A stretch of 48,119 bases of DNA from a bacterium (GTDB taxonomy: Bacteria; Ratteibacteria; UBA8468), in NCBI GenBank assembly GCA_030672255.1, contig DAOVGU010000137.1, forward strand, positions 1-48,119, read 5' to 3'. This document shows positions 13,118 through 44,194 of the stretch, one piece after another. Position 1 is the stretch's first letter; the number at the start of each line of letters is the position of its first letter. The position numbers and the translations under genes are program-made. A model generated the notes under the pieces. That model had not been told where the DNA came from. It did no database searches and saw nothing but the letters and a program-made list of their open reading frames with translations.

Positions 13118-13137
13118 CCCCGTATTTAATACGGGGG
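13118..13137. repeat. R2 palindrome, intergenic
   Basis: CCCCGTATTTAATACGGGGG lies between ispD and argJ, nested between the ATTGTGTCG / CGACACAAT inverted repeats. Confidence 0.85.
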
Positions 13138-13153: not shown

Positions 13154-13861
13154 TCATGGTTGCCTCATCTTCAGGATTGCTCTAGCCAGGAGGAGGTCAT
13201 TTTTTGTAGTAATCTTAATATTACAAGGGTCCCCTTTAATGATCTTTGCTGAAATACCAATCCTCTCCACCAAAGAGGCCGAATCCGTTCCCAAAAAATG
13301 ATCCTTCTTTGCCCGGAAATAGGCCTTTTGAATAATTGAGGCTCTGAACCCCTGGGGCGTCTGAACCCTCCAGAAGGATCCTCTATTCTTTATTGTAGAT
13401 TTAATAAAAAAAGAACCTCTCACTTCCTTAATTGTATCGGAAATGGGAAGTCCAACAACAGCCGCTTTATACCTTTTTGCGGCTAAAGTTATCCTTCTAA
13501 TTAACCCTTTAGTAAGGAAGGGTCTGGCTCCATCATGAATAAGGATGAGATCGCAAAGAGAATTTATTCTCTTTAACCCTAAAGCAACGGAATCCTGCCG
13601 GCTCTTTCCTCCTGCAACTATCTCCTTAACCTTGGAGATGCGGTATTTTCTTACCAATCTCCTTGCCTCTGAAATCCTGCTCTCCTCCACTACCAAGATG
13701 ATATCATCAATAAAAGAGGAGGCTTCTAATGTAAGGAGGCTATAGGTAAGGAGAGGCTTTCCTTCGAGGAGGAAAAAGGGTTTATTAAGTTGATAATCAA
13801 GTCTTTTACCCTTTCCGGCTGCCGGCACAACCACTGTTACATAGGGGTCAGGTCTCAACAT
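13154..13861 (-). CDS. ispD: 2-C-methyl-D-erythritol 4-phosphate cytidylyltransferase
   Basis: 235 aa with VVPAAGKGKRL. The ATG and first six codons (MLRPDP) lie inside the R5 terminal repeat. Confidence 0.9.
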   Translation of the reverse strand: MLRPDPYVTVVVPAAGKGKRLDYQLNKPFFLLEGKPLLTYSLLTLEASSFIDDIILVVEESRISEARRLVRKYRISKVKEIVAGGKSRQDSVALGLKRINSLCDLILIHDGARPFLTKGLIRRITLAAKRYKAAVVGLPISDTIKEVRGSFFIKSTIKNRGSFWRVQTPQGFRASIIQKAYFRAKKDHFLGTDSASLVERIGISAKIIKGDPCNIKITTKNDLLLARAILKMRQP

Positions 13862-13976
13862 TTGACAAAACGTTTATAAGTTCAAGATTCATCTCAATTC
13901 AGTATTTTAATAGTAAAATAATTTAAAAAATCTCTAACTTCATCAGGGAAAGTGTCAAATGTTGAGACCTGACCCC
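13844..13976. mobile_element. MITE-like element with 24-bp TIR GGGGTCAGGTCTCAACATTTGACA (family R5)
   Basis: The left TIR is 13844-13867 and its reverse complement is 13953-13976, around an AT-rich core. A second copy lies at 40919-41004. Confidence 0.75.
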
Positions 13977-13981
13977 TTATC

Positions 13982-15989: not shown

Positions 15990-16200
15990 AGTATGTTCGG
16001 AGTATTTCTTCGGCGGCACGCCTCCAGAAATAGTCCTCTCATTAGTGTTTTAAATACAAAGGCGAGGAAAGTTTCTGTAGCGGCCTTGTTAGCGACGAAC
16101 GGGCACGGTGTCCTCGAAGAGGACGAGTGAGGAGCAACGAGAGCGAAGATTTCCTCGCTGGGGAAATCAAGCGTGCCGCCGAAGAAACTTTCCGAGCCTC
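15990..16200. mobile_element. junction TIR element (family R4) filling the mlaF-stop to mlaD-start gap exactly
   Basis: The 17-bp perfect inverted core is TTTCTTCGGCGGCACGC (16005-16021) / GCGTGCCGCCGAAGAAA (16171-16187). The termini touch TGA (16201-16203) and ATG (15987-15989). Confidence 0.75.
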
Positions 16201-16920: not shown

Positions 16921-17288
16921 AGTATACTCGGAGTATTTCCTCGAGAGGACGCTCGTCTGGTGACTTCGCTCTGCTTTTCGGTTATTAGTGGGTGCAAGAA
17001 ACCTCAAAGCAAAGCCTCTTTACGGAAACACTCCTCCTCTCTGGTTTACATACAGAGGCGAGGAAGTTTCCTGAAGCGTGCCTTGTTACCGACTCGCGCC
17101 CCTCTGTGTCTCCCCACAAGTGGGGAGAACATTAAAAGAGAAGGACGAGCGAGGGTGCCTGTTGCGATGAATAAAGAGCAACGAGATTAGGCACGCCCGC
17201 CGAGATGTGAGGCGGGCCGGGGGAACGAGAGTGCAGATTCCCTCGCTGGGGGAATCAAGCGTGCCGCCGAAGAAACTTTCCGAGCCTC
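16921..17288. mobile_element. junction TIR element (family R4, larger composite) filling the mlaE-stop to mlaF-start gap exactly
   Basis: The right ~55 nt are identical in pattern to 16146-16200. The left end is AGTATACTCGGAGTATTTCCTCGAGAGG. It contains a nested R3 hairpin at 17109-17128. Confidence 0.7.
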
Positions 17289-18065
17289 TCATAAGAAATA
17301 AAAGAAAGCATTAATGATGAGATCGGCTAAGACAACCAGAAGAAAGGAGAAGGCCACCGAGAGCGTTGTTGCCCTTCCCACACCCTCTGCTCCTCCGGTA
17401 GTCTCAAACCCCTGACGAGAGGCCACAACCACAATAATGAGACCAAAGACAAAGGACTTTAAGAGCCCGATTAAAAGATCCTTGAAGAGAAGAAATTTGA
17501 ATGACTGATAAAGATACATATTTGAATTTATTCCCATCCCATAGACGGCAATGAACCAGCCACCAAAAATAGAAAGAAAAATAGCCATGAGAGTGAGAGC
17601 AGGCATCATAATGATAGCCGCGATGAGCCTTGGTCCCACCAGGTAACTTACAGGATTTACGGCAAGAGAGCGAAGGGCATCAATTTGCTCGGTAACCTGC
17701 ATGCTCCCTATCTCGGCACTGATTGCTGCTCCTACCCTGCTGGCAATAATTAAGGCGACAAAGATGGGGGACAACTCCCGAACAGCGGAGAGGCTAACTA
17801 GACTCCCTACATAGGTCTGGGCTCCTACCCTGCGGAGGGCAGCCGCCGATTGCATGGCCAATATCATCCCTAAAAGTATTGAGATAACACCAACCATTGG
17901 AAAAGACCTGTTCCCAAATTCATCCATCTGCTTGAGAACTTCCCTTCCCCTGAATTTTGAACTAAAAAGAGAGCCAACCGTTCTAAAACCGAGAAGTCCT
18001 AAGGAACCAAAATAGGAAAAGATACCTAATCCATTCCTGCCAAGTCTCTCCAAAAAATTAGTCAT
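17289..18065 (-). CDS. mlaE: ABC transporter permease
   Basis: Start at MTNFLERLG (ATG at 18063-18065). The polytopic protein looks like the MlaE/Ttg2B family. The upstream 60 codons of the ORF are R1 repeat sequence. Confidence 0.88.
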   Translation of the reverse strand: MTNFLERLGRNGLGIFSYFGSLGLLGFRTVGSLFSSKFRGREVLKQMDEFGNRSFPMVGVISILLGMILAMQSAAALRRVGAQTYVGSLVSLSAVRELSPIFVALIIASRVGAAISAEIGSMQVTEQIDALRSLAVNPVSYLVGPRLIAAIIMMPALTLMAIFLSIFGGWFIAVYGMGINSNMYLYQSFKFLLFKDLLIGLLKSFVFGLIIVVVASRQGFETTGGAEGVGRATTLSVAFSFLLVVLADLIINAFFYFL

Positions 18066-18107
18066 AAGTTCAATAGGATGCAGATTTTCACAGATGACAG
18101 TGCAACT

Positions 18108-18242
18108 GTCATTGCGAGGCCGAAGGCCGTGGCAATCCCTCACTTCTATGGGATTGCTTCGTCGTTCCACTCCTCGCAACGACTGCGTCGGATTGCTTCG
18201 CTTCGCTCGCAATGACAAGCGAGGGACCTCGCTCACAATGAC
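18108..18242. repeat. family R1 composite element
   Basis: The first ~55 nt are near-identical to 24249-24303. An extra CGTCGTTCCACTCCTCGCAACGACTGCGTCGGATTGCTTCG module is nested inside. Confidence 0.85.
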
Positions 18243-18262
18243 CATGTCACTTTAAACTATCT

Positions 18263-19648
18263 TCACTCCTGCCTGGGGGACCAGGGTTCAAACCTTGTAT
18301 ATTCCTTAATGAAGGTAAAGTTAATTGTGCCCGTAGGGCCATTACGTTGCTTGGCAATAATCAATTCAGTGGGCTCTTGCTTCTTTCCTTCCTCAGCAAT
18401 TCCCTCCCCCGTATTAAATACGGGGTCAGTAATTTCTTCCTCCTCGCGATAGAGAAGCAAAACCAAATCGGCATCCTGTTCCATGGCTCCACTTTCTCGT
18501 AAATCGGAGAGTCGTGGCCGTCGATGTTCCTCTGCCGCCCGTCTTAACTGAGAAAGGGCGATAATAGGAATCCCCAACTCTTTAGCCAGGGCTTTAAGGG
18601 AGGCAGAAATTTCGGTAATCTCCTGTTGTCGGTTCTCAATCCTCGTTCTTGTTTGCATCAACTGCAGATAGTCAACAATTACCAATTTAATTCCCTCCTT
18701 TGCCACCAGTCGCCTGGCCTTTGCCCTAATTTCCAAAATAGAAAGAGCCGGAGAGTCGTCAATAAAGATTGGCGCCTCCTGCAACCTGCCTGCGGCCATT
18801 GTTAGATTGGGCCAATCGGAATCTTTGGAAAAGCCGGTTCTTAACTTTAGGAGGTTTACCTTCGCCTCGGTGCAGAGCATCCTCTGAACTAACTGCTCCT
18901 TAGACATCTCTAAACTGAAAAAGGCTAAAGGTACTTTCTTCTTGGCGCCAAGATAAGAGGCGATGTTAGCCGCAAGGGAGGTTTTGCCAACCGAGGGGCG
19001 GGAGGCGACAATAATGAACTCCGAAGGTTGAAATCCTGAGGTTCGCATGTCCAGATCATAGAATCCGCTGGGCAGTCCCGTGATATAGCCTTTTTGGTCG
19101 GCTGCCTCCTCAATCGTCTCAATTGTCTGATGAACCAGCTCCCGAAAGGGGATAACCTCTCCTTTCCTCTTGCGATATCCTCCCACATCAAAAATAAGTT
19201 TTTCTGCTTCATCCAGAGTTTTATCAACATCATCGCTTTCCCAAACTTCATTAACAATTTTATTGCTATTCTCAATGAGACGCCGCAGGATAAACTTATC
19301 CCTCACAATCTTAATATATTGCTCGATATTTGCTGCCGAAGGAACGGCATCAATAAGCTTTGTGAGGTAGCTGGAACCACCAACCACTTCTAAATTGTGC
19401 TCACTTTTCAGTCTGTTCGTCAGGGTAACAAGATCGCAGGACTCATTCTTCTCAAAGAGATTCACAATTGCCTTAAAGATTTCACGATGGGCTTCCTTAT
19501 AAAAATTTTCTGGAGCAATCTCCTCAATCGCCTTATTTCTGGCCTTTTCCTCTAAAAGCATGGAGCCAAGAAGTGCTTGCTCAGCCTCGATATTGGCCGG
19601 TGGACTCTTCCCTATTTCCTCAACAGGAGAACTCTTTCTTCTCGCCAT
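18263..19648 (-). CDS. dnaB: replicative DNA helicase
   Basis: 461 aa. Motifs are NIEAEQALLGSML, Walker A SRPSVGKTS, and C-terminal AKQRNGPTG. Confidence 0.95.
   Translation of the reverse strand: MARRKSSPVEEIGKSPPANIEAEQALLGSMLLEEKARNKAIEEIAPENFYKEAHREIFKAIVNLFEKNESCDLVTLTNRLKSEHNLEVVGGSSYLTKLIDAVPSAANIEQYIKIVRDKFILRRLIENSNKIVNEVWESDDVDKTLDEAEKLIFDVGGYRKRKGEVIPFRELVHQTIETIEEAADQKGYITGLPSGFYDLDMRTSGFQPSEFIIVASRPSVGKTSLAANIASYLGAKKKVPLAFFSLEMSKEQLVQRMLCTEAKVNLLKLRTGFSKDSDWPNLTMAAGRLQEAPIFIDDSPALSILEIRAKARRLVAKEGIKLVIVDYLQLMQTRTRIENRQQEITEISASLKALAKELGIPIIALSQLRRAAEEHRRPRLSDLRESGAMEQDADLVLLLYREEEEITDPVFNTGEGIAEEGKKQEPTELIIAKQRNGPTGTINFTFIKEYTRFEPWSPRQE
18406..18425. repeat. R2 palindrome in frame in dnaB
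   Basis: CCCCCGTATTAAATACGGGG is read on the minus strand as (D)PVFNTG(E). Confidence 0.9.
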
Positions 19649-19659
19649 TTGAGATTCTT

Positions 19660-19678
19660 CCCCCGTATTAAATACGGA
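19660..19678. repeat. R2 palindrome (one arm degenerate), rplI-dnaB intergenic
   Basis: CCCCCGTATTAAATACGGA. Confidence 0.8.
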
Positions 19679-19693
19679 GTCAGAATGACTTCG

Positions 19694-20146
19694 TCACCTT
19701 TCCTTTATTACCCAAACCTTCAACTCGCTTTCTATCCCGGGAGCCAACTTCAAAGGAACCTTATAGACCCCTAACCTCTTTATTGGTTCGGGTAGAAGGA
19801 TCGATTGCTTTTTTAGTTTGATCCCATGCTCCTGGAAAAGAGCGGTAATAATCTCCTCCTTTGTCACCGAGCCAAAAAGCCTCTCGGCCTCTCCTACCCG
19901 AGCGGCGATGGTGCAGGAGATCTTTCCTATTTTTTCTGCCAATCTTCTTGTGGCCTCTTTCTCCCTTTCCTCCTTTTCTCTCTTCCTCTTCTTTTCTACC
20001 TCTAATAGTTTGATATTACTTATCGTCGCTGAATAGGCCCATCCTTTCGGGAGAAGAAAATTTCTGGCATAACCATCCTTTACCTCAATCACCTCTCCCC
20101 CTTTTCCTAATTTTTCCACATCCTTCCTTAGAACGATTTTCATCAT
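19694..20146 (-). CDS. rplI: 50S ribosomal protein L9
   Basis: 150 aa. N-terminus is MKIVLRKDVEKLGKGGEVIEVKDGYARNFLLPKG. Confidence 0.95.
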   Translation of the reverse strand: MMKIVLRKDVEKLGKGGEVIEVKDGYARNFLLPKGWAYSATISNIKLLEVEKKRKREKEEREKEATRRLAEKIGKISCTIAARVGEAERLFGSVTKEEIITALFQEHGIKLKKQSILLPEPIKRLGVYKVPLKLAPGIESELKVWVIKER

Positions 20147-20279
20147 ATGTTCGGACTATCTTCTTCAGCGGCACGCTTGTTTGGTCTCGCACCGATGGTG
20201 CTCGGTCAGGGTGCGAGATGTGAGCACCCTGCCTGACGAAGCGATAGCTGAGAAGACCTCTCGAGGAAATACTCCGAGC
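20147..20279. mobile_element. junction TIR element (family R4) filling the rpsR-stop to rplI-start gap exactly
   Basis: Left end ATATGTTCGGACTATCTTCTTCAGC, right end GCTGAGAAGACCTCTCGAGGAAATACTCCGAGCC. It touches TAG (20280-20282) and ATG (20144-20146). Confidence 0.75.
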
Positions 20280-20528
20280 CTACCGAACCATATATGGCAA
20301 TAGCGCCATAAACCTTGCCCTCTTAATTGCCCGGGCAAGGGCACGCTGATGCTTAAGGCAGGTTCCGGTAGTAGAGCGGGGAAGGATTTTGCCCCTACCG
20401 CTGATGCATCTTCTAATTCTGCTTATCTCTTTATAATCGATTTCTTTAATCTTATCCTTGCAGAATCTACATACCTTCGGAAGTGGCCTCTCCTTCTTCC
20501 TTTTCTTTCTTTTCCTCCCTTTCACCAT
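20280..20528 (-). CDS. rpsR: 30S ribosomal protein S18
   Basis: 82 aa. Motifs are [15 protein letters not shown]...LPYM. Confidence 0.93.
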
Positions 20529-20889
20529 AGGTAACCTCTCCCTCCAGGGTCTGCACAGGAGCTTTTCCTAAAAATTGTAGCCTCTCAATCCTTACCTCCA
20601 AGGTACTACGCTTCTCCTTATTCGCCGTCTCCCAACTCCGATAGACAAGTCTTCCCTCCACGAATATTGGGCTTCCCTTTTTGAGATACTCCCCGGCTAA
20701 TTCCGCCTGTCTGCCCCAGGCAACTAAAGTAACAAAGCAGGTCTCTTCCTTTAACTCCCCTTCCTTACTCCTGTACTTCCGGCTGGTGGCTAATCCAAGA
20801 TTAGCCACGGGAGTTCCTCCTGCAGTATAACGCACCTCAGGATCCCTGGTTAAATTTCCGATTAAAAAAACCTTATTGCAATTAGCCAC
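20467..20889 (-). CDS. ssb: single-stranded DNA-binding protein
   Basis: 140 aa. OB fold [21 protein letters not shown] start. The tail overlaps rpsR by 62 nt and lacks the canonical DDDIPF tip. Confidence 0.9.
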
Positions 20890-21173
20890 TATTTTTTAAG
20901 AATGAAATACCTTAAAACTTTCCCCTTCAAATCGAGTTCCTTCTTGATATCCCCTATACTCTCTGGGAAAAGTTTCATCTCAAAGAGAACATAAAAGCCC
21001 TCCTTTTTCTCTTTGATGGGATAGGCAAGCATTCGCTTTCCCCAGATATTGGTCGTCTCAACTTTCCCTTTATGCTTATCGATGAGCTTGGTAATTCCTT
21101 CAACCTCTCCCTTAACTTCTTCCTCCCCTAAGCCGGGATCAAGAATAAACAGATTTTCGTAACTTTTTATCAT
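20889..21173 (-). CDS. rpsF: 30S ribosomal protein S6
   Basis: 94 aa. N-terminal region YENLFILDPGLGEEE. Confidence 0.93.
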   Translation of the reverse strand: MIKSYENLFILDPGLGEEEVKGEVEGITKLIDKHKGKVETTNIWGKRMLAYPIKEKKEGFYVLFEMKLFPESIGDIKKELDLKGKVLRYFILKK

Positions 21174-21182
21174 AATCTTTTT

Positions 21183-21210
21183 ATTATACCGTTTTCTCTT
21201 AAAAAGTCAA
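21183..21210 (-). promoter_or_regulatory. near-consensus promoter of the rpsF-ssb-rpsR-rplI operon
   Basis: The minus strand reads TTGACT (21210-21205), a 16-nt spacer, TATAAT (21188-21183), then 9 nt, then the ATG. Confidence 0.55.
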
Positions 21211-21211
21211 A

Positions 21212-21298
21212 TGGTGGGGATAGAGAGATTTGAACTCTCACGGTCTTTCGACCACTAGCTCCTGAAGCTAGCGCGTCTGCCAGTTCCACCATATCCCC
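21212..21298 (-). tRNA. tRNA-Leu (anticodon CAG), CCA encoded
   Basis: The minus strand reads GGGGATATGGTGGAACTGGCAGACGCGCTAGC-TTCAGGA-GCTAGTGGTCGAAAGACCGTGAGAGTTCAAATCTCTCTATCCCCACCA. It is a class II tRNA with a long variable arm. Confidence 0.93.
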
Positions 21299-21378
21299 AA
21301 AATCTTTTTTATAACCGCAGATACACACAGATGAACACGGATGTCATTCTGAGCCAAAGGCGAAGAATCTCTCCTTTG

Positions 21379-22260
21379 TTATCTGCGTATATCTGTGTTA
21401 ATCTGTGGTTGCATAATATTTAAAATATTCATCAGCATTACCTCTAAGGAAAGCTTAGGGTTAGCGCTCTGATGAATCTGGGCACGAGTTTCGATAATGA
21501 GATCGATGAGTTCCATAATCTGAGAGGAGTTTAACTCCTCATCAATCAGCTCTAAATTACTCAATAATTTCCTTTCTGCCCCATTTTTAAGGAGAAGAAG
21601 GTCACGATAAAAAGATAGGAGCAATTTTAGAGAGGAATCTAGCCCCCCACCAATATTGGTGGGGGGTAAAATTTCCTCCGCCATAGCAAAAATCTCCGAA
21701 GGATTCTGCAAAGAAAGGGAATTAATATCTGTGATCAGGCTTCTCTGAAGTTCTCTCTCCTCCTTTTTGAGAACTCTCCTACCAGTAGAAAACATAATCT
21801 TTTGACACCGGGAGACGATTGTAGGAAGAAACTCCTTATCACTTTTGGCAATCAGGAGGAGTGTCGTATACTCAGGCGGTTCCTCCAGGGTCTTCAGGAA
21901 GGCATTGCTTGCTTCTTCATTTAACCTCTCGACCTCAAAGATATAGACCCTTTTCTTCCCCAGAAAAGGTTTAAGCCACATCTCTTTCTGAATTTCCCTT
22001 AGTTCATCGATCGTAAGAGAGGAGACCACACCTTCTCCCCTCAACCATTTCACATCGGGATGGATAAAGGATCCAATCTTCAAGCAGTTTTCGCAGCTAT
22101 TGCAGGGAAAATTGCTCTTCTCGCATTCGATCGCTTTGGCAAAGTTTAAAGCGACCTTTTCTTTATCCTCAGAAGAGCCAGCAAAGAAGAGATAGGCAGA
22201 ACTCAAGCGTCCCTTAGCGATCGAATTTTTCAGATAGCGCTCGATTTTTTCGGTTTCCAT
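21379..22260 (-). CDS. holB: DNA polymerase III subunit delta'
   Basis: 293 aa. It has an AAA+-like N-terminus, Zn module CNSCENC, and TLEEPP. The last ~11 codons (QPQINTDIRR) are repeat-derived. Confidence 0.85.
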   Translation of the reverse strand: METEKIERYLKNSIAKGRLSSAYLFFAGSSEDKEKVALNFAKAIECEKSNFPCNSCENCLKIGSFIHPDVKWLRGEGVVSSLTIDELREIQKEMWLKPFLGKKRVYIFEVERLNEEASNAFLKTLEEPPEYTTLLLIAKSDKEFLPTIVSRCQKIMFSTGRRVLKKEERELQRSLITDINSLSLQNPSEIFAMAEEILPPTNIGGGLDSSLKLLLSFYRDLLLLKNGAERKLLSNLELIDEELNSSQIMELIDLIIETRAQIHQSANPKLSLEVMLMNILNIMQPQINTDIRR

Positions 22261-22338
22261 AATTTTTAACCACAGATTAATGGAGACAACAACAGAGAAA
22301 AATCTTTAACAACGTTAAGATTTTCACAGATTTCCACG

Positions 22339-23514
22339 TCATCCCTTGTATGGCTGGCCCGAAGGTTCAACTTTGGGCAACCCAACGATATCCCAAAATG
22401 TTGTACCGGGGAACGGCTCGCGGCGCAAGTCAGGAATGGCAAGTGGCAGGCCACCAAGTTCTGCAGATTTGTTGGCGATGATTCCCGGAAGTGAATACTC
22501 AATAGCACGGTACACGTTGATCGGTGAAGGTTTGCCTCGGATTATGGTTTCAGTAAAGTATTTTGCTACTTTAAAATCAGTACCCCCATGACCTGTGCTG
22601 ACATCTTCATCTTTCGCTGCGCTACCGATATCCACTCGCTGCCAAGCCTCTTTTTGCTGGTCTCGATCCATCCGACGGCAGAATCCCTCGTAACTGAACC
22701 ACTCCGTGCTTCCCCCTGTTCCCATGAGACGATAGCGATGGCCAGAGGGCTGTCGCGTGCTTAAGGTAACCATGATCTTAATAAGTCTTCCTTTGGCTGT
22801 GTGAAACAATGCGATCTGGCCGTCGGAACGCAGGGGTGCTTCCTTACATCGCCAAGGTGCACTACGGCACGTAACTGACACGCAACGGTCGTCTAGCACC
22901 TCCAGCAATGGACCCAAATCATGGGTAAGATACTGTATAGGGGGTTGGTCGGCGCGCCAGATGGGCTTACAATCGGTTCGTCCTTGTGCTTTCGCTTCAC
23001 TGGGAGAAAAGCGACTACCATCAGAAGCGAATAAAGTTTGGGGTAAGTAGTGCAGATATTCGGCCTCGGCAATGGAAATCGGACCGAAGCGACCATTGAG
23101 TAACCACTTTCGCCAGTGACGCAGAAAATCCAGAAAACTGGAGTTTTCGGCCAGCATGTAAGTTTTTCCGGTACGTTCTACCGTGTCTCGCAAATGAATG
23201 AATTCCTCTTCTGTATATGCACCCGGCACTTCGGAAAGAACATCACATCCAGCTTCCATAGCTTGGCAAGAATGTTCCACCTGAAGCTTGCCGTTGCTGG
23301 CGACGACAACAGCATCGGGATTCATTGCCAACAACTCGTCGAATTCTGAAACTACCTTTCCCCCTGCAGGTTCCAACAATTCTTTACCCTTCTCTCGAAG
23401 CATTGGGAATCGGTCGCACGCACCAATTACCTCAGCCTGTTCTACCTTCAGAAAGTTCCGTAAGTGTGTTATGCCGCGACCAAGTCCCAAGATGCCAACT
23501 TTCAATTTGTCCAT
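22339..23514 (-). CDS. Gfo/Idh/MocA-family oxidoreductase
   Basis: 391 aa with Rossmann motif KVGILGLGRG. It is visibly GC-richer (about 47-58% in spot-counted lines) than its neighbours, and it is repeat-free. Confidence 0.8.
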   Translation of the reverse strand: MDKLKVGILGLGRGITHLRNFLKVEQAEVIGACDRFPMLREKGKELLEPAGGKVVSEFDELLAMNPDAVVVASNGKLQVEHSCQAMEAGCDVLSEVPGAYTEEEFIHLRDTVERTGKTYMLAENSSFLDFLRHWRKWLLNGRFGPISIAEAEYLHYLPQTLFASDGSRFSPSEAKAQGRTDCKPIWRADQPPIQYLTHDLGPLLEVLDDRCVSVTCRSAPWRCKEAPLRSDGQIALFHTAKGRLIKIMVTLSTRQPSGHRYRLMGTGGSTEWFSYEGFCRRMDRDQQKEAWQRVDIGSAAKDEDVSTGHGGTDFKVAKYFTETIIRGKPSPINVYRAIEYSLPGIIANKSAELGGLPLAIPDLRREPFPGTTFWDIVGLPKVEPSGQPYKG

Positions 23515-23593
23515 GCCCCCCCTTTTTTTAACACTATGTGGCTAAAAAATATTCTCCTTCAATACTAATCTATGTTTTCTGGAGCTGCAATTT

Positions 23594-24220
23594 TCACGTT
23601 TTTGTGTATTTTTGCAAATATGGAATTACTACCTTTTTTATCTCTTGAAATGTATCATCTTCATCTGCTCTTACAGAAATTGTCTTAATCCTTTTCTTAT
23701 TAGAAAGAGCAATTTTAAGGTAGCCCTTTCTCACTCGCTGATGGAAAGGCAAAGATTCCTTCTCGAACCTGTCCCTTCTGCTCTTAGTTCTCTTTAAAGC
23801 AAACTCTGGCCTTTCGTCCAGAAGGATAGTGAGGTCTGGGCTTATCCCCTTTGTAATAACTCTGTTTAACCTTGTTATTAAGCTCTTGGGTATTCCTCTT
23901 CCATATCCCTGGTAGGCAAGGGTTGAATCGGAAAACCGATCAATAATAAGAACTTTTCCCTTCTTAAGGGAGGGAAGGATAGTTTCTTTTACCAACTGGC
24001 TCCGAGCAGCAAGAAAGAGAAATAGTTCGCTAAGTGGTACTATTTCGTGGTTAGAATAAAGTAAGGTCTTTTTGACACTTTCGCCAAGATTGCTTCCTCC
24101 CGGTTCCCTGAGATGAATAACATCATACCTTTTTCTCTTTAGCCAATGGTATAGTTTTCTGCTTTGTGTGGACTTACCACTTCCATCAATCCCCTCAAAA
24201 CTAATCAGAATGCCTTTCAT
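23594..24220 (-). CDS. tmk: thymidylate kinase
   Basis: P-loop FEGIDGSGKSTQ. The ATG at 24218-24220 is preferred over the GTG at 24232. Confidence 0.92.
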   Translation of the reverse strand: MKGILISFEGIDGSGKSTQSRKLYHWLKRKRYDVIHLREPGGSNLGESVKKTLLYSNHEIVPLSELFLFLAARSQLVKETILPSLKKGKVLIIDRFSDSTLAYQGYGRGIPKSLITRLNRVITKGISPDLTILLDERPEFALKRTKSRRDRFEKESLPFHQRVRKGYLKIALSNKKRIKTISVRADEDDTFQEIKKVVIPYLQKYTKT

Positions 24221-24232
24221 TATTTTAACCAC

Positions 24233-24436
24233 AGATTAACACAGGAATGTCATTGCGAGGCCGAAGGCCGTGGCAATCCCTCACTTCTATGGGATTGCTT
24301 CGCTTCGCTCGCAATGACAGTTGCATTGTCATCTGCGTTTATCTGCGTCCAATAAATTACACCCCCACCTACCTCCCCCCTTGAGGGGGAGGATTGAGGA
24401 GAGGGGTAACTTTGAAATTCCATACGATAAATTATT
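24233..24436. repeat. intergenic mosaic of five repeat families in series
   Basis: In order: AACCACAGATTAACACAG; R1 (24249-24318); ATCTGCGTTTATCTGCG; R3 (24361-24406); the 21-mer TTGAAATTCCATACGATAAAT (24412-24432). Confidence 0.85.
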
Positions 24437-25534
24437 TTAACCCTTTAGGGTATTCTTTGTCAAAGAGTAGAACGAGGAAAATCTATTCTCTCTGATTGCT
24501 TTTCTTGTCTCCTTCATCAAATGGTTAAGGAAAAAAAGGTTATGATAGGAGGCTAATCTCAAAGCCAGAAGTTCGCCAGCATTAAAGAGATGCCTGAGAT
24601 AGGCGCGGGTGTAATTTCGGCAGACAAAGCAGCTACAATCCTCATCAATAGGGGTAGTATCATTCTTGAATATACTATCGCGGATGATAATTTTCCCTTT
24701 ATGGGTCAGGCAACTCCCATTGCGGGCGATCTGGGTAGGGAAACTGCTGTCAAAAAGGTCAATTCCCCTTTTAATTAGTTCCAATATTTGAGCCGGCTTG
24801 CCAACACCCATTAAATAACGGGGCTTATTCTCCGGCATCAAAGGGACCAAAGAATCAACAACCTCAAGCATCATTTCCTCAGGTTCCCCTACCGAAAGGC
24901 TTCCAATCCCATAACCAGGAAAATTAATTTTCTCCAATTCTTCTATAGCTCTTCTGCGTAGCTCTTTATAGATGGAGCCTTGAATAATCCCGAATAAAAG
25001 TTGCCTACTATTTTTATGTACTTTTCTGCACCTTATTGCCCACCTAACTGTCCGCTCCATGCTCTTTTTTGCCTCTTTGTATTCTGCCGGATATCCCAAA
25101 CATTCATCGAAGACCATAATGATATCTGCTCCAAGAATTTCTTGAATCTTGATTGAGATCTCCGGGGAAAAGAAGTGGGAAGAGCCATCAAGAGAGGAGT
25201 GAAAATCGGCCCCCTCCTCGGTTACCTTTGTATTTTCTAGGCTAAAGACCTGATAACCTCCGGAATCTGTAAGGATTGGTCGGCTCCAGTTCATGAACCG
25301 ATGCAGGCCCCCAGATTTCTTAATAATCTCTACCCCCGGTTTCAGGTAAAGATGAAAGGCATTGGCCAAAATCAGTTTATAGTTCATCTCCATTAATTCT
25401 TCTGAGGAAAGGGTCTTTACTGCGCCGGCTGTAGCAACCGGCATAAAGGCGGGAGTAACAATTTTTCCATGGGGCGTAATAATCTCTCCCAACCTTGCTC
25501 TTGTTTTTTTATCCTGATGGATTACTTTGAACAT
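24437..25534 (-). CDS. tgt: tRNA-guanine transglycosylase (queuine tRNA-ribosyltransferase)
   Basis: 365 aa. It has DSGGYQ and the Zn site CSCFVCRNYTRAYLRHL. Confidence 0.95.
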   Translation of the reverse strand: MFKVIHQDKKTRARLGEIITPHGKIVTPAFMPVATAGAVKTLSSEELMEMNYKLILANAFHLYLKPGVEIIKKSGGLHRFMNWSRPILTDSGGYQVFSLENTKVTEEGADFHSSLDGSSHFFSPEISIKIQEILGADIIMVFDECLGYPAEYKEAKKSMERTVRWAIRCRKVHKNSRQLLFGIIQGSIYKELRRRAIEELEKINFPGYGIGSLSVGEPEEMMLEVVDSLVPLMPENKPRYLMGVGKPAQILELIKRGIDLFDSSFPTQIARNGSCLTHKGKIIIRDSIFKNDTTPIDEDCSCFVCRNYTRAYLRHLFNAGELLALRLASYHNLFFLNHLMKETRKAIRENRFSSFYSLTKNTLKG

Positions 25535-26617
25535 TTACAGAATCAGCATCGCATCGCCATAACTGGCGAAGCGGTATTTTCCTTTGATTGCCTCAGAATA
25601 GGCTCTCTGAATTAATTCCTTCCCGGCAAAGGTAGCGACTAAAAGAAAGAGGGTGGTAGATGGAAGATGAAAATTGGTAAGCATGCTATCTGTAATCTTA
25701 AATCTATAGCCGGGGTAGATATATAGTGAGGTCCAGCCTTTCCTGGGCTCTACATAACCATCGGTGTTGGCTGTTGTTTCTAAAACCCGCACACTGGTTG
25801 TTCCTACCGCAATGATTCTTTTGCCCTCTTTTTTAGTCTTATTAATCAATTTAGCTGCACCAGGAGGAAGTTCAAAATATTCCTTTTCCATCTGATGCTT
25901 TTCAATATCTTCCTCTCTGATTGGCTTAAAGGTGCTCCAGCCAATATTTAAGGTAACAAAGGTGATGCTCACTCCTTTTTCTTTCACTCTCTGCAAAAAT
26001 CCTTCAGTAAAATGTAAGCCAGCGGTAGGAGCCGCAATTGCTCCATTTCTTTTGCTATAGACGGTCTGGTAATAAGTCATATCAATAGGTAAGGGTTTTC
26101 GCTTAATGTAGGGAGGTAGAGGAATCTCGCCAATCTTCTTCAATAGCTCCTCTATCCTTCCCGGATAAAGAAACTCTACTTTGTACTTCCCATTCTTCTT
26201 TTCTAAGATTTTTGCTTTTATTCCTTCATTGAAGAAGATTGTTGAGCCAACCCTTATTCTTGGTCTGGCCAATGCTTCATAGATACTTTTCCCCTCACCT
26301 CTATCCGGGGGATGCACTCCCTCAAGGGGAGTGGAGCCCCCGGAAATTAGGCGGGGGTGTAACCTACGAAGCACCAAAAGTTCTGCCCTTCCTCCGGTTT
26401 CCTTTTTTCCTTTGAGCCGGGCTGGAATCACCTTGGTATTATTTAAGACCAAAAGGTCCCCTGAGGAAAGATAGTCGAGAAGAGCAGGAAAGATGCGATG
26501 CTCAATCCTTTTCTCCTTTCTTTTGATGACCAATAGCCTTGCCCTTTCTCTCTTTAAAAGTGGCATCTGGGCAATTAGCTCCTTTGGCAGGAAGTAGTCA
26601 AAATCGGAAAGTCTCAT
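25535..26617 (-). CDS. queA: S-adenosylmethionine:tRNA ribosyltransferase-isomerase
   Basis: 360 aa. Motifs are MRLSDFDYFLPKELIAQ...PTAGLHFT...SYGDAMLI. Confidence 0.95.
   Translation of the reverse strand: MRLSDFDYFLPKELIAQMPLLKRERARLLVIKRKEKRIEHRIFPALLDYLSSGDLLVLNNTKVIPARLKGKKETGGRAELLVLRRLHPRLISGGSTPLEGVHPPDRGEGKSIYEALARPRIRVGSTIFFNEGIKAKILEKKNGKYKVEFLYPGRIEELLKKIGEIPLPPYIKRKPLPIDMTYYQTVYSKRNGAIAAPTAGLHFTEGFLQRVKEKGVSITFVTLNIGWSTFKPIREEDIEKHQMEKEYFELPPGAAKLINKTKKEGKRIIAVGTTSVRVLETTANTDGYVEPRKGWTSLYIYPGYRFKITDSMLTNFHLPSTTLFLLVATFAGKELIQRAYSEAIKGKYRFASYGDAMLIL
26291..26359. repeat. R3-type triple-nested palindrome in frame in queA
   Basis: Read on the minus strand as (L)HPRLISGGSTPLEGVHPPDRGEG. 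Arms are CACCCCCGCC/GGTGAGGGG, TCCGGGGG/CCCCCGGA, CACTCCCC-TTGA-GGGAGTG. Confidence 0.8.
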
Positions 26618-26631
26618 AATACATTATAGCT

Positions 26632-26724
26632 GTCATTGCGAAGCCGAAGGCTGTGGCAATCTCTGACTTCTCTGAAGAGAGAGATTCTTCGTCCGCCAAT
26701 AAATATTGGCGGACTCAGAATGAC
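26632..26724. repeat. R1-like element (GTCATTGCGAAG ... CTCAGAATGAC)
   Basis: Its right end supplies the last codons and the TGA stop (26715-26717) of the GT2 gene. Confidence 0.7.
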
Positions 26725-27446
26725 GTTTTGTGGTTATCTGTGGTTATGCATTTATAAAAAGCCCAGAGATACCATTTGAGGTAGATGGGTGCAATTTTTA
26801 AGATTTTAAACTTAGATTTGCCTCTCTTTCTTCCTTTCCAGTTGGTTGGAACCTCAGCAATCTTGCATCCTTGATAATACAGTTTCAAGGCAACCTCCAT
26901 TGAGGTAGCAAAGCTACTACCTTCTTTAACCTTTATCTTTTGTAGAGCGCTTCTTCGGTATAGTTTGAAGGCATTGGCGATATCTGCGGTGGGAATCCTG
27001 GTTAAGAAATGAATGCTTTTCCCAACAAATTTAGAGAAAAAGCCTTTTAGTCTTGAACCACCGATTCTTCTTCCTCCTTTGCTATAACGAGAAGCACAGA
27101 TAAGGTCATAGCCTTCTTTCATCTTTTCATACATCTCTTTTATAGTATCCGGGTCATCACAGCCATCGGCCATTACCGGAATGAGAAACTCTCCCTGTGC
27201 TTCTTGAAATCCGGTGATTAAGGTGGAAGCAAAACCTCTTTTTCCGATATTATGGAACAGTCTAATATTGGAATATTTTTTCATTAATTTTTGTGTAATA
27301 CTAACAGTTTTATCAAGAGAATGGTCGTTAACAATAACAATTTCAAAATTATAATCGGAAAGGGTCCTCTCTAAAGAGGAAATCATCTCCTCCAGAGAAT
27401 CCTCCTCATTATGTGCGGGGATAATAATGGAAAAATTCGTCGGCAT
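26715..27446 (-). CDS. family 2 glycosyltransferase, Dpm1/ArnC-like (polyprenyl-phosphate sugar synthase type)
   Basis: Start at MPTNFSIIIPAHNEE. Motifs are VNDHSLDKT, ADGCDDP, ASRY. Confidence 0.8.
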   Translation of the reverse strand: MPTNFSIIIPAHNEEDSLEEMISSLERTLSDYNFEIVIVNDHSLDKTVSITQKLMKKYSNIRLFHNIGKRGFASTLITGFQEAQGEFLIPVMADGCDDPDTIKEMYEKMKEGYDLICASRYSKGGRRIGGSRLKGFFSKFVGKSIHFLTRIPTADIANAFKLYRRSALQKIKVKEGSSFATSMEVALKLYYQGCKIAEVPTNWKGRKRGKSKFKILKIAPIYLKWYLWAFYKCITTDNHKTSF

Positions 27447-27520
27447 ATTAAACTTGTAGGGGTTGGATCCATCCGACCCGCGGGCCTGATAAATCAAGCC
27501 CCTACACTGACATGTTACCG

Positions 27521-28642
27521 CTAAATTAAATTTTTATCTTTCAATTTTTTCGCTGCCTTCTCAAAAAAATCCTCTGCCTCCACGCTCTTTGACCAGTCAA
27601 CCAATTCTTCTATTCCTTCTTCCAGATTTATTCTCGGTTGAAAGCCCAAGAGCCTTTTTATCTTGCCAATATCGGCAAAGCAATGCCGGATATCACCCTT
27701 ACGGAATTTATTGGTAATTTCGGGTTTTATTGATTTTCCGGTTGCTTTGGTTAATCTTTCTGCTATTTTCAGAATGGTCGTTGCTTTTCCTGAACCCAGA
27801 TTAAAAATCTGATAATCTGCCTTTTCCTTCTCCATCGCTAAAATATTTGCTCTTACCACATCATAGACCGAAATGAAATCCCGGGATTGGCTACCATCCT
27901 CATAGATAATCGGGGCTTTACTATTCTTGATTCTTGATAAGAAAATGGCCATTACCCCGGTATAGGGATTGGAGAGGGACTGTCTTGGACCATAGACATT
28001 AAAGAAGCGAAGAACAACTACCGGGAGAAAATAGGTTTTGCCGATATTTAAGACGAGCTCCTCCTGGGTTTTCTTAGTGATGGCATAGATGGAGTTTACA
28101 TTTAATCTTGCTGATTCTCTGGTAGCGACTGGCTTTAAAATTCTCTGGCAGGCAGGGCAATAAGGTTCCCAGTCCTTCCTTTTTAATTGGCGAAGAACCC
28201 GTAACTCTGGCTGAACAATCCCACAGGAGGAACATCTATACTCCCCTTCACCGTACTCACTCATCGAAGCGGCCAAAATCAGCTTTTTTATTTTATTTTT
28301 GTTATTTACTATAAGGTCGAGGAGATTGGCTGTCCCGCCAATATTGGTCTCCACATATCTTTTTACTTCGTACTGGCTCTGGCCAATGCCAACGGCTGCG
28401 GCAAAATGAAAGATAATTTCTATATTTTTTATTGCTTTCTTTAAATCATTTAGTTTCCTGATATCTCCTTTAATAAATTTCGCCCTTCCCGTATTAAATA
28501 CGGGATAGGCCGGTAATCTTTTTTCGGGATGAACCTGGGCCTCTAAGTTATCGAAAGCGGTTACCTGATGGCCTTTTTTAACCAATTCATCAACAAGGAA
28601 ACTGCCAATAAACCCTGCCCCTCCCGTCACTAATATTTTCAT
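27521..28642 (-). CDS. NAD-dependent sugar epimerase/dehydratase (extended SDR) with Cys4 insert
   Basis: 373 aa. It has TGGAGFIGS and YAITK (YxxxK). An extra CSSC...CPAC segment lies at 28148-28234. Confidence 0.85.
   Translation of the reverse strand: MKILVTGGAGFIGSFLVDELVKKGHQVTAFDNLEAQVHPEKRLPAYPVFNTGRAKFIKGDIRKLNDLKKAIKNIEIIFHFAAAVGIGQSQYEVKRYVETNIGGTANLLDLIVNNKNKIKKLILAASMSEYGEGEYRCSSCGIVQPELRVLRQLKRKDWEPYCPACQRILKPVATRESARLNVNSIYAITKKTQEELVLNIGKTYFLPVVVLRFFNVYGPRQSLSNPYTGVMAIFLSRIKNSKAPIIYEDGSQSRDFISVYDVVRANILAMEKEKADYQIFNLGSGKATTILKIAERLTKATGKSIKPEITNKFRKGDIRHCFADIGKIKRLLGFQPRINLEEGIEELVDWSKSVEAEDFFEKAAKKLKDKNLI
28488..28504. repeat. R2 palindrome in frame in the SDR gene
   Basis: CCCGTATTAAATACGGG is read on the minus strand as PVFNTG (residues 47-52). 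Confidence 0.9.
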
Positions 28643-28645
28643 TAA

Positions 28646-29968
28646 TTATCCCCTTCCCACTCCCTCATAAACAAATCCCAATTTTTTCATTCTTTCCGGC
28701 TCATAGATATTGCGACCATCAATGAGATAAGGCTTTTGCAGCAACCTTTTTACCTTGATTAAGTTGAGATTCTTAAATTCCTCCCATTCGGTAAGAATAA
28801 GCAGGAGCTCAGCATCTTTGCAGACTTCATAAGGGTTTCTGCAATAGGTAATCCGCCAATGTTTAGTGGCGGAGGGAAAAATTTTCTTTGTCTCCCTCAT
28901 CGCCTCAGGGTCATATACCCGAAGAACCGCCCCCTCGGAAAGAAGCTCTTTTATAATCTTAATGGAAGGAGCTTCCCGAATATCATCGGTATTCGGTTTA
29001 AAGGAAAGGCCCAGGATGCCAATTCTCCTATTTTTCAGGGTCGGCAGGAGTCTTTTTACCTTCTTGAAAAGAAGGTTTAATTGTTCTTGATTAATCCTTT
29101 GCACCGCTTTAAGCAGACTAAAGTCGTAGCCTTCCTCCTTCGCCAGATGGATAAAGGCGGCTACATCCTTAGCAAAGCAGCTGCCTCCATAGCCAATTCC
29201 TGCAGAGAGAAATTTTTTACCAATGCGGGAATCATAGCCCATCCCCTTTGCTACCTGGCTAACATCCGCTCCTACCTTCTCACAGATACGAGAGATCGCA
29301 TTGATGTAGGAAATTTTTGTGGCTAAAAAGGAGTTAGAGGCATGCTTAATCAGTTCAGCGCTCCTTACATCGGTGAAGATAATCGGTGCTTTTATTGGTC
29401 GATAAAGCTCGGCTAATGTTCTTCTTGCTCTTTGCGATTCGGCGCCGATGATAATACGTTCGGGTTGCAAAAAATCCAATATTGCCGAGCCTTCCCTTAA
29501 AAATTCCGGATTAGCGGCCAGATCAAAATCAACCTCTTTCCTTTTAATCAAATTAATTGTTCTCTTTACCCATTCCCCGGTCATTACCGGAACGGTGCTC
29601 TTCTCCACCAGTAATTTATAACCCTTCATTGCCTTTGCTATCTCTGAGGTAACCGCCTCAACAGCCGAAAGGTCTGCCCCTCCATCTTTTTTAGAAGGGG
29701 TTCCTACAGCGATAAAGATAATCTCAGAAACACTGATAGCCTCTTTAATACTCCCACTAAAGGAAAGTTTTTCTCTTTTCACCGCTTTTTTCACTATCTC
29801 TTCCAAACCAGGCTCAAAGAAGGGCATTATCCCTTTTTTAAGACCACCTATCTTTCTCTGATCATTATCTACACAGATGACCTTTCCCGTATTAAATACG
29901 GGATTAGCAAAACAGGCCGCGGTTACCAATCCGACGTGGCCGGCTCCAATTACCGTGATTCCTTTCAT
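28646..29968 (-). CDS. ugd: UDP-glucose 6-dehydrogenase
   Basis: It has GAGHVGLV and catalytic GGSCFAKD. The start at 29968 gives an ATGA overlap with the upstream stop. Confidence 0.92.
   Translation of the reverse strand: MKGITVIGAGHVGLVTAACFANPVFNTGKVICVDNDQRKIGGLKKGIMPFFEPGLEEIVKKAVKREKLSFSGSIKEAISVSEIIFIAVGTPSKKDGGADLSAVEAVTSEIAKAMKGYKLLVEKSTVPVMTGEWVKRTINLIKRKEVDFDLAANPEFLREGSAILDFLQPERIIIGAESQRARRTLAELYRPIKAPIIFTDVRSAELIKHASNSFLATKISYINAISRICEKVGADVSQVAKGMGYDSRIGKKFLSAGIGYGGSCFAKDVAAFIHLAKEEGYDFSLLKAVQRINQEQLNLLFKKVKRLLPTLKNRRIGILGLSFKPNTDDIREAPSIKIIKELLSEGAVLRVYDPEAMRETKKIFPSATKHWRITYCRNPYEVCKDAELLLILTEWEEFKNLNLIKVKRLLQKPYLIDGRNIYEPERMKKLGFVYEGVGRG
29886..29902. repeat. R2 palindrome in frame in ugd
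   Basis: CCCGTATTAAATACGGG is read as (FAN)PVFNTG(KVICVD). Confidence 0.9.
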
Positions 29969-30969
29969 TTTACCCCTTTCATCCATTCGACCAGTTTTTT
30001 TAACCCTTCATCCACCTTAATCACAGGTTTCCAGCCAAAATCCTTCCTCGCCTTTCTGATATCGCTGATGTAGATTTTTTGGTCTCCGAGACGCCAATTG
30101 GCAAAGGTATAAGGGATTTTTTTGCCAATAAGTCCCTCCAGTTCACCGATAAGTTCCAAAAGTGAGATCCTATTCCCCTTTCCTCCACCGATATTATAGA
30201 TTTCTCCTTTTGTTCTAACAATACTTTTAATGCATAGTTGAAATGCTTTTATTAAATCATCAATATAAAGAATATCCCTTACCTGTTTGCCATCTCCATA
30301 AATGGTTATGGACCTTCCTTTTAAACTTGAGATAGCAAAGTGCGCCACCCAGCCCTGCTCCTCATTACCAAATTGGTGCGGTCCGTAGATGCAGGACTGG
30401 CGGAAGACAACTGTTTTTAATCCATAAATCCGGGAATAATCCCTGACATACTGGTCAGCGGCTCCTTTGGAACAGCCGTAAGGGGAATAGAAGTCTAAAA
30501 GAGTATTCTCAGATATGCCAGATAGATCTTCAAATTGGTATCTTTTCCCCTTTTCAATTATCCTTTTATCCTTGACTTCCCCATAAACCTTATTGGTTGA
30601 GGCAAAGATTAAAATGCTCTCCGGGGAAAGGTTTCTCATCGCCTCTAAAAGATTTAGGGTGCCGGTAGCGTTAACCTCAAAATCCTCCCTGGGATTAGTT
30701 ACGGAATTGGTCACCGCTACCTGCGCGGCAAGATGATAGATAATATCTGTGTTTTTAACCGCCTCTTTTACCTTTTTATCATCCCGGATATCTGCAATCG
30801 TTATCTCTAAATTCCCTTCAAGACTCTTTAGCCACTTGAGATTTTCCTCTGTTCCTTCCCGGGAAAGATTATCAAAAACTCTAATCTTTTCTCCTTTTTT
30901 AAGAAGAAAGGCAGCCAAATTTGTCCCAATAAATCCTGCCCCTCCTGTAACTAATATTTTCTTTGCCAT
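29965..30969 (-). CDS. NAD-dependent sugar epimerase (CDP-paratose/tyvelose 2-epimerase-like SDR)
   Basis: 334 aa. Motifs are TGGAGFIGTN, YSPYGCSKGAADQY, EQGWVAHF. Confidence 0.75.
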   Translation of the reverse strand: MAKKILVTGGAGFIGTNLAAFLLKKGEKIRVFDNLSREGTEENLKWLKSLEGNLEITIADIRDDKKVKEAVKNTDIIYHLAAQVAVTNSVTNPREDFEVNATGTLNLLEAMRNLSPESILIFASTNKVYGEVKDKRIIEKGKRYQFEDLSGISENTLLDFYSPYGCSKGAADQYVRDYSRIYGLKTVVFRQSCIYGPHQFGNEEQGWVAHFAISSLKGRSITIYGDGKQVRDILYIDDLIKAFQLCIKSIVRTKGEIYNIGGGKGNRISLLELIGELEGLIGKKIPYTFANWRLGDQKIYISDIRKARKDFGWKPVIKVDEGLKKLVEWMKGVK

Positions 30970-40936: not shown

Positions 40937-41004
40937 TTGACAAAAATACAAAAACTTTTAATTTACCATTATCAAACTTTGTCAAATGTTGAGACCTGAC
41001 CCCT
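40919..41004. mobile_element. second copy of the R5 TIR element
   Basis: It has the same 24-bp TIRs as 13844-13976 and a different, shorter core. It contains the stop of the upstream SDR gene and the ATG of the downstream GT-C gene. Confidence 0.75.
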
Positions 41005-44185: not shown

Positions 44186-44194
44186 CACTTCGTG

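Follow-up and report, generated by a model that had tools for sequence, protein, structure and literature searches.

REP-like hairpins in an Omnitrophota contig and a 17-nt palindrome translated in frame within dnaB, ugd and an epimerase gene

REPs (repetitive extragenic palindromic sequences) are described as stem-loops of 20-40 bp with a GTAG or CGTC (TGTC) tag and a short tail, the stem of the CGTC type beginning with AT (PMC3733652). Di Nocera, De Gregorio and Rocco (2013) reported GTAG- and CGTC-tagged REPs that sit in frame within genes, many of which act in replication and repair, and cited the Rickettsia palindromic elements (RPEs) in the same paper (PMC3733652, refs 13 and 14). REPINs, which are paired inverted REPs with a cognate single-copy REP-associated tyrosine transposase (RAYT), are described as mostly inherited vertically (PMC3116915; RAREFAN preprint 10.1101/2022.05.22.493013). 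Here we describe a 17-nt palindrome, CCCGTATT[A/T]AATACGGG (written whole, CCCGTATTWAATACGGG), in the whole contig DAOVGU010000137.1 (assembly GCA_030672255.1; 48,119 bp, hereafter the window), whose best protein matches carry Candidatus Omnitrophota or Ratteibacteria labels. The palindrome occurs in spacers and is translated in frame as PVFNTG in dnaB, in ugd (UDP-glucose 6-dehydrogenase) and in a gene for an epimerase/dehydratase of the short-chain dehydrogenase/reductase (SDR) type. A literature search returned no paper with the 17-mer or its core, and string matches to its host units were unrelated primers.

The 17-mer has 8-bp arms around a single central A/T base, extends to a 19-mer, usually by C...G or T...A, and as a hairpin module has an 8-bp stem and a 3-nt loop. 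The window holds eight copies, against 0 expected and 0 matches in 100 dinucleotide shuffles: three in genes (18408, 28488 and 29886) and five in non-coding DNA (5739, 13119, 19662, 44008 and 47996). Seven are perfect, the copy at 19662 has one mismatch (...GGA), and none has two or three, which gives a bimodal mismatch spectrum. A comparison with Rfam at the gathering threshold reported a tRNA in the window and nothing else. The coding copies and their host genes, identified by Pfam, are as follows.

18263-19648, minus strand: dnaB ORF (Pfam DnaB_C and DnaB)
18407-18429, minus strand: palindrome patch in dnaB, with the 17-mer at 18408-18424; in gene sense CTGAC-CCCGTATTTAATACGGG-G, encoding (T)D-PVFNTG
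27521-28642, minus strand: extended SDR epimerase/dehydratase ORF (Pfam Epimerase/GDP_Man_Dehyd)
28488-28504, minus strand: 17-mer in the SDR gene, in frame, PVFNTG at aa 47
28646-29986, minus strand: ugd ORF (Pfam UDPG_MGDP_dh)
29886-29902, minus strand: 17-mer in ugd, in frame, PVFNTG at aa 29

An earlier note on this DNA had pointed to the single orientation and reading frame of the three coding copies and to further copies in non-coding DNA, and both observations hold: all three copies lie on the minus strand in codon phase 0 and read PVFNTG (at aa 409 in DnaB). The same note had taken the flanking nucleotides to be unrelated, which is not wholly so, since the dnaB copy and the intergenic copy at 19662, 1.2 kb apart, have the extended match CTGAC-17mer-GG in common, and the ugd and SDR copies that of AT-17mer-AA.GG.

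Orthologues show what stood at these sites before. PVFNTG was missing in 119 of 120 Ugd homologues, which read CFA(K/E)LG(N/H)xV, the exception being a 99%-identical copy from a Logan assembly, and in all 120 DnaB homologues, the closest of which (91% identical, locus L089) reads EEEI-IEAV-TE-GIAEE. A syntenic locus in another Omnitrophota metagenome-assembled genome (MAG), L086, has dnaB, SDR and ugd at 75-84% identity, none with the palindrome, and no copy was found anywhere in L086 (21 kb) or L089 (14 kb). Compared with the dnaB orthologue of L089, which is 90% identical in nucleotides, TCGAAGCAGTTACT has become CTGACCCCGTATTTAATACGGGG (net +9 nt). TTT AAT AAA has become CCC GTA TTT AAT ACG GGA in the SDR gene, where the L086 orthologue reads LPNY--FNK-KAKF (net +3 aa), and TTA GGA AAT has become CCC GTA TTT AAT ACG GGA in ugd (net +9 nt). 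Each gene gained three codons, about 9-14 nt of ancestral sequence being overwritten by 18-23 nt, and the coding copies are single patches of 17-23 nt. Judged from these alignments, PVFNTG is evidently a recent, lineage-specific gain from a repeated DNA element in all three genes. Of the earlier note's proposal that a mobile or templated unit entered three ORFs, the gain from a repeated element stands and the clean insertion of 17-20 bp does not.

That PVFNTG could be a peptide motif of these enzymes, whether ancestral or selected convergently, is scarcely conceivable, and the orthologue alignments refuted it. PV(F/Y)N is natural in GT2 glycosyltransferases, one such chance match being locus L003, but the hexapeptide is missing from the 240 Ugd and DnaB homologues, bar the near-identical Ugd copy, and from the syntenic SDR, and three unrelated genes share its exact nucleotides with one another and with spacers. 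An origin of the coding copies in assembly errors or chimeric joins at a repeated palindrome is also very improbable. Palindromes can confuse assemblers, and the multi-copy genomes among the matches listed are all short-read MAGs; however, all four coding copies of the window (the fourth, in nadC, is described below) keep the frame with flanks colinear with orthologues, and unrelated data sets contain in-frame copies of a similar kind. An independent assembler also recovered the same copies in dnaB, ugd and the SDR gene, in Logan assemblies of run SRR26080961 (L098 and L090), which makes an artefact unlikely.

The changes in the three genes are patch replacements rather than clean insertions, and they left no target duplications. 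A flanking direct repeat of at least 4 nt was absent at 108 of 109 copies in the window and 220 fetched loci. The exception is the nadC copy, and a target-site duplication there was rejected because its repeat belongs to an A-rich flank family that is also found in the metagenome contigs L106, L146 and L152. Miniature inverted-repeat transposable elements (MITEs) such as Correia/NEMIS and Nezha are likewise non-autonomous repeats that can land in reading frames, but they have transposase-recognised terminal inverted repeats and target-site duplications, neither of which was seen here.

The earlier note had suggested looking for loops on structural models, and PVFNTG lies between secondary-structure elements in all three proteins. 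In the AlphaFold model of Ugd (mean pLDDT 87.8) it occupies a coil at residues 28-35 (pLDDT ~93) between the dinucleotide-binding helix 17-27 and strand 2 (36-39). In the DnaB model it falls in a disordered loop (403-422) of low confidence, which joins two strands of the RecA-like domain and varies in length across homologues, and in the SDR it lies in the variable beta2-beta3 segment between DNL and KFIKGD. The inserts are thus predicted to sit in protein loops. In addition, some 40 residues at aa 134-175 of the SDR epimerase form an insert that has two CxxC pairs, resembles a zinc ribbon and is missing from the aligned PDB epimerases.

RPEs are comparable in that they too are palindromic repeats that housekeeping genes carry in frame and that are tolerated on the surface of the protein. 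They are about 100-150 bp long and encode tens of residues. RPEs are confined to Rickettsia, whereas the unit described here amounts to six residues (net +9 nt) and occurs in Omnitrophota, Planctomycetota, Chloroflexota and others. The likeness to RPEs drawn in the earlier note is apt as to behaviour, but the closest precedent is the intragenic GTAG/CGTC-tagged REPs (PMC3733652).

The spacers of the window are full of larger units, some of which carry the palindrome. The units have the form (C/T/A)GTC-ATTGCGAG-[variable apex]-GTGGCAAT-CCC, in both orientations, or more generally GTCATT...AATC(C/T)C, with CGTC, TGTC or GTAG tags followed by ATTGC... and a full length of 32-52 nt. Perfect hairpins with arms of at least 8 nt number 42 in the window against ~5 in shuffles, the 17-mer being one module within a far larger population of hairpins in this genome. 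The main units and clusters are listed here.

4746-4900 and 5631-5818 (span 4746-5818), no strand assigned: two paralogous clusters of GTCATTGCGAG...GCAATC units that flank a PhoU_div gene
5719-5777, minus strand: REP-like unit GTCATTGCGAGCGAACAA-CCCCGTATTAAATACGGGG-GAGTGTGGCAATCCC, with the 19-mer
13119-13135, no strand assigned: 17-mer in a foldback element of ~85 nt, in the 108-nt ispD-argJ spacer
18107-18219, no strand assigned: REP-like cluster between dnaB and mlaE, where the spacer of L089 has none
19652-19690, minus strand: REP-like unit GTCATTCTGAC-TCCGTATTTAATACGGG-GGAAGAATCTC, which lies 3 nt upstream of the start codon of dnaB
43989-44042, plus strand: REP-like unit with the 17-mer (44008-44024); the neighbouring unit 44046-44084 is without it
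47977-48032, plus strand: REP-like unit with the 17-mer (47996-48012)
24247-24320, 36878-36967, 41963-42106 and 43985-44187: further REP-like clusters

Within these units the hairpin behaves as an exchangeable module. The unit at 4820-4862 is the same as its paralogue at 5719-5777 except for AGT in place of the 19-mer CCCCGTATTAAATACGGGG, and the units 43989-44042 and 44046-44084 again differ solely by 19-mer versus AGT, so that two independent pairs show one and the same exchange. The orthologous unit in the rplI-dnaB spacer reads GTCATTCTGA-ACGAAG-GGAAGAATCTC in L089 and GTCATTCTGA-CTCCGTATTTAATACGGG-GGAAGAATCTC in the window, and the identity of the flanks over more than 40 nt shows that the apical loop was swapped, from 6 to 18 nt. 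The ispD and argJ genes overlap in L089 and have no spacer between them. Addition of the module changes the predicted single-stranded fold from -1.8 to -9.8 kcal/mol (4820-4862 versus 5719-5777) and in another case from -0.8 to -6.9 kcal/mol. The composite unit of the 19662 spacer recurs in the MAGs L026, L059, L064 and L068. Altogether, 23 GTCATTGCGA unit ends were counted in the window alongside 9(+1) palindromes, compared with 0 of either in close relatives, meaning ~90% identity in dnaB nucleotides and 76% in nadC.

A sister palindrome, CCCTGATTWAATCAGGG, which did not figure in the earlier note, has the form CCCTGATT[A/T]AATCAGGG: GT is changed to TG and the other arm is compensated (hereafter the GT and TG types). 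It has two window copies, and the host unit gtcattgcgac-[ ]-ggaagcaatcc holds either the GT or the TG palindrome in different metagenomes. A third, unrelated palindrome lies in holB.

10312-10328, plus strand: sister palindrome CCCTGATTTAATCAGGG in nadC (9785-10660), in frame, PDLIRG
7420-7436, no strand assigned: sister palindrome CCCTGATTAAATCAGGG, intergenic
21643-21666, minus strand: unrelated perfect 24-nt palindrome CCCCCCACCAATATTGGTGGGGGG in holB, in frame, PPTNIGGG

The PDLIRG insert was missing in 58 other NadC homologues, and the closest relative (L100) is without 24 nt at this place. Five NadC homologues (P0243, P0246, P0247, P0251 and P0253) have (L/F)LAMT in the insert loop (window aa ~165-185), which is how the REP end CTCGCAATGAC reads when translated in frame; the loop is a recurrent landing site. 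In holB, 30 nt stand for 18 nt of L089 (+12 nt) and replace INENEI of the orthologues. The holB palindrome is a single copy across all sequence examined and represents the same kind of event with a different sequence.

Palindromes rich in P and G codons, CCCCTCCC-loop-GGGAGGGG, are also translated in frame (PPLEGGE and similar), at 37603-37623, 40195-40215, 40277-40297, 46234-46258 and 2870-2892, and two PMT_2 genes have 20-31 more residues with them than in L086. Copies were also noted in the ORFs 2606-3085 and 45626-47677. In contrast, the palindrome CATTCCCCAACTTCGGGGAATG in uvrB (8814-8835), which has a REP-like look, codes for the conserved motif TIPQLRGM; it is no insert, a caution against reading every coding palindrome as one.

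Compared with REPs, the elements of the window are likewise short, high-copy palindromic stem-loops that are mostly extragenic (6 of 10 copies) and often clustered, with a minority (four copies) in frame in genes. Replication and repair genes are hit in both cases, here those for DnaB and HolB and elsewhere those for MutS, an AddB-like protein and ribonucleotide reductase, and the host units open with CGTC, TGTC or GTAG, after which comes a stem whose first bases are AT. However, the coding copies consist of the 17-19 bp apical hairpin alone, without tag or outer stem, and several intergenic copies are also without the tag and have variable flanks. The palindrome itself (17-19 bp, 10 copies in 48 kb) is shorter than the 20-40 bp of REPs, the host units being 32-52 nt long; further differences are that the identical sequence is found in several phyla and that target nucleotides are replaced.

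How did the hairpins reach these sites? On balance we lean towards a recent burst in which REP-like hairpins spread through the copying of short templated patches and were then filtered by selection. The CGTC/TGTC/GTAG units would have expanded recently in this Omnitrophota genome, the 17-mer being their apical hairpin, and to spread, an existing copy would donate a short patch of its sequence non-reciprocally. Where REP units have flanks in common, this could be ordinary short-tract gene conversion, which would turn an apical loop into the hairpin. Rarely, the copying would land at an ectopic site, through template switching or illegitimate repair synthesis at a gap or at a fork that has stalled, and would overwrite a few target nucleotides without target duplication; the copying enzyme and the template-switch step are both inferred. 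Most ectopic hits in genes would be lost, and the survivors, PVFNTG in DnaB, SDR and Ugd and PDLIRG in NadC, would be those that are in frame, free of stops and in loops that tolerate three extra residues.

Several observations are consistent with this course of events. Seven perfect copies and one with a single mismatch, with none at two or three, suggest copying rather than gradual drift, and the extended match of the dnaB patch with the 19662 unit (CTGAC and GG) may be the signature of the donor. The two palindromes are depleted from coding DNA, with 4 of 10 copies in genes in a window that is 88% coding (p = 4e-4) and 6 of 10 in the 12% that is non-coding. This depletion, together with the loop location, points to a selection filter. 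The uniform PVFNTG frame is weak evidence for any reading. The earlier note had attributed it to stop avoidance, with TAA in one frame per orientation, but four of the six frames of the 17-mer are open (PVFNTG, PVLNTG, PYLIR and RIKYG) and other frames are used elsewhere, so that stop codons alone cannot explain it. The chance of three coding copies in one frame is ~1/16, or ~1/4 if the ugd and SDR copies, which are adjacent and have extra flanking bases in common, are not independent.

Other observations weigh against templated copying. No enzyme or intermediate was seen. Ancestral target sites compared with the element and its flanks had no significant pre-existing similarity: in terms of the fraction of other gene positions that scored at least as high as the target, the core gave 0.8 in dnaB, 0.08 in the SDR gene and 0.19 in ugd, and the flanks in dnaB gave 0.15, which leaves microhomology-guided targeting unproven. 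The ancestral state of ugd and SDR is taken from orthologues just 75-79% identical, and templated copying does not account for the same +9 nt in all three genes. Moreover, the recurrence of two 17-mers across phyla is not explained by plain template switching and suggests a sequence-specific factor.

The two palindromes are indeed found far beyond the window. A collection of 596 Gb of genomes was scanned, in which ~70 exact 17-mer matches are expected by chance; singletons (Vibrio, Pseudomonas and others) were therefore discounted, and multi-copy genomes or common flanks were used. About 5e-4 exact matches are expected by chance in each of the following genomes.

JACQGQ01, Chloroflexi: at least 7 copies
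PFWI01, Ratteibacteria: at least 6 copies
JAUWGW01, unclassified bacterium (CSMAG_2252): at least 4 copies
JACQEW01, Nitrospinota: at least 3 copies
JAURAC01, anammox Planctomycetota: at least 3 copies, on contigs of up to 174 kb

In these genomes the flanks are genome-specific and the palindrome often caps a longer hairpin. The TG type was found at more than 120 metagenome loci, in host units known to hold the GT type too. In-frame copies recur there as well: the RIKYG frame is used in an anammox MurD and in a Ratteibacteria ribonucleotide reductase (an RNR-type ATP-cone protein), and LIKSG or PDLIR of the TG type in MutS (twice in one gene), RsmA, an RNR N-terminus and an AddB-like protein.

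Side observations were made on several of these loci. The TG type is very common in environmental metagenomes. A MutS ORF on metagenome contig L186 has two exact TG-type copies (PLIKSG and APDLIRG) and a shorter relative, CCCGATTTAATCGGGG (PDLIG), which accounts for 8 residues more than in E. coli MutS. In Chloroflexi JACQGQ01 (L031, 3216-3330), REP-like units GTCATTCCCGT...ACGGGAATCC have apical hairpins of one stem with different loops, CCCGTA-CTCGA-TACGGG and CCCGTA-CCTGA-TACGGG. A viral vector was considered and dropped, as just 7 matches were found in IMG/VR, about chance level by rough estimate. The reading of the palindrome as a tRNA-Leu(UAA) anticodon arm (5-bp stem, 7-nt loop) was dropped as unsupported, since no locus offered a tRNA-Leu(UAA) gene for comparison.

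The main rival explanation, which we regard as rather doubtful, is that the palindrome is a minimal non-autonomous transposable hairpin moved by a sequence-specific single-stranded-DNA enzyme encoded elsewhere, such as a RAYT/TnpA-REP-like HUH tyrosine transposase, the two palindromes being two recognition dialects. It would account for a perfect hairpin (-7.1 kcal/mol predicted for the isolated single-stranded 17-mer), for arms that co-vary between GT and TG, with no other 5-bp stem carrying the same loop in 1.4 Mb of fetched loci, and for the presence of both types together in Omnitrophota (the window), Ratteibacteria (L036) and Chloroflexi (L031). It also fits with multi-copy genomes in several phyla, with the CGTC/TGTC/GTAG tags of REP superfamilies on the host units (PMC3733652) and with IS200/IS605-type transposition, which gives no target duplication. 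However, no transposase, RAYT included, was found among the 10 candidate window ORFs scanned, and no transposase family, again including RAYT, was enriched beside the copies at 85 loci; the proteins common to copy-bearing loci are generic ones, namely ABC ATPases, histidine kinases and epimerases. Next to the coding copies neither a tag nor a tetranucleotide is conserved, and target nucleotides are replaced, not merely interrupted. To our knowledge, 17 nt is below any substrate shown to be moved by such enzymes. An IS21 element beside the copy in L036 is an unrelated insertion, since L110 and L144 are without it.

REPIN-RAYT systems resemble the present case as hairpin repeats that replicate within a genome as near-identical populations. 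The coding copies here, however, are single patches and not two inverted REPs with a spacer, relatives ~90% identical in dnaB are without the whole population, and the same 17-mers cross phyla. The presence of the same two hairpins in distant phyla, from groundwater and sediment, suggests horizontal spread and a specific factor. With some hesitation, we raise the possibility that the two co-varying 17-mers are the recognition hairpins of an undescribed, horizontally transferred sequence-specific agent, which would write them into the tips of REP scaffolds unrelated to each other and into essential genes (those for DnaB, Ugd, NadC, MurD, MutS, RsmA and ribonucleotide reductase) in Omnitrophota, Planctomycetota, Chloroflexota, Nitrospinota and further lineages. 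Were this so, these would be the smallest mobile DNA modules known, with an invasive cross-phylum behaviour in contrast to the vertical REPIN-RAYT systems.

We consider it unlikely that the palindrome is instead a functional site kept or made by selection or molecular drive, for instance a DNA-uptake-like signal, an operator to which a dimeric protein binds, or a hairpin that stabilises or terminates RNA, with coding near-matches driven to perfection. Palindrome residues do overlie similar ancestral ones (FN in SDR, V..T(G) in DnaB, SLIEGR to PLIKSG in MutS, KVVCG to RIKYG in MurD), REP units that fold weakly become stable hairpins once the module is added, and a hairpin precedes the ribosome-binding site of two genes in a Ratteibacteria locus. 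On the other hand, half-sites were not enriched beyond the full palindromes, intermediate near-matches were not seen, all four window genes changed in length, copies are depleted from coding DNA, and a T-run follows none of the window copies. The DNA uptake sequences of Neisseria and the uptake signal sequences of Pasteurellaceae are short over-represented motifs that also occur in genes, in preferred frames and less conserved protein segments. They are non-palindromic and lineage-specific and arise by substitution with many near-matches, whereas the 17-mers have neither enriched half-sites nor near-matches and cross several phyla.

The REP clusters also affect gene models in the window. The ORFs 17289-18245 (MlaE) and 43325-44122 (secreted, no assigned function) have spurious N-terminal extensions through REP clusters, with the real starts downstream. 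ORF 36161-38194 joins a PMT_2 membrane glycosyltransferase to a GT2 protein, which are separate genes in L086; the fusion arises because the intervening cluster 36878-36967 is open in frame (...SLRLLAMT...). Other repeats were noted. A 27-mer, AGGGGTCAGGTCTCAACATTTGACAAA, forms two inverted pairs at gene boundaries (13843-13869, 13953-13977, 40919-40944 and 40978-41004) and is also present at the ispD/argJ junction of L089; as it contains TTGACA, it may be a promoter or operator. The short repeats GCGTGCCGCCGAAGAAA (16005-16021, 16171-16187 and 17259-17275) and TTTGAAATTCCATAC (452-466, 7690-7704 and 24411-24425) have three copies each at gene ends.

REPs in frame inside genes are already known (PMC3733652), with RPEs as the older precedent. 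What appears to be new is the very small, tag-less unit, the replacement of a patch of the target, and a module that is exchangeable between scaffolds; the two compensating dialects and the burst-like cross-phylum distribution, unlike the mostly vertical REPIN-RAYT, likewise appear new. In practical terms, such repeats break short-read assemblies and give rise to spurious ORF extensions and gene fusions, as with the MlaE N-terminus and PMT_2-GT2, and could serve as strain markers. A REP-like population can arise as a burst and be absent from relatives that are ~90% identical in dnaB (76% in nadC). Hairpins of 17-19 nt that are parasitic on the genome can remodel essential proteins, three residues at a time, a source of loop indels that is seldom considered.

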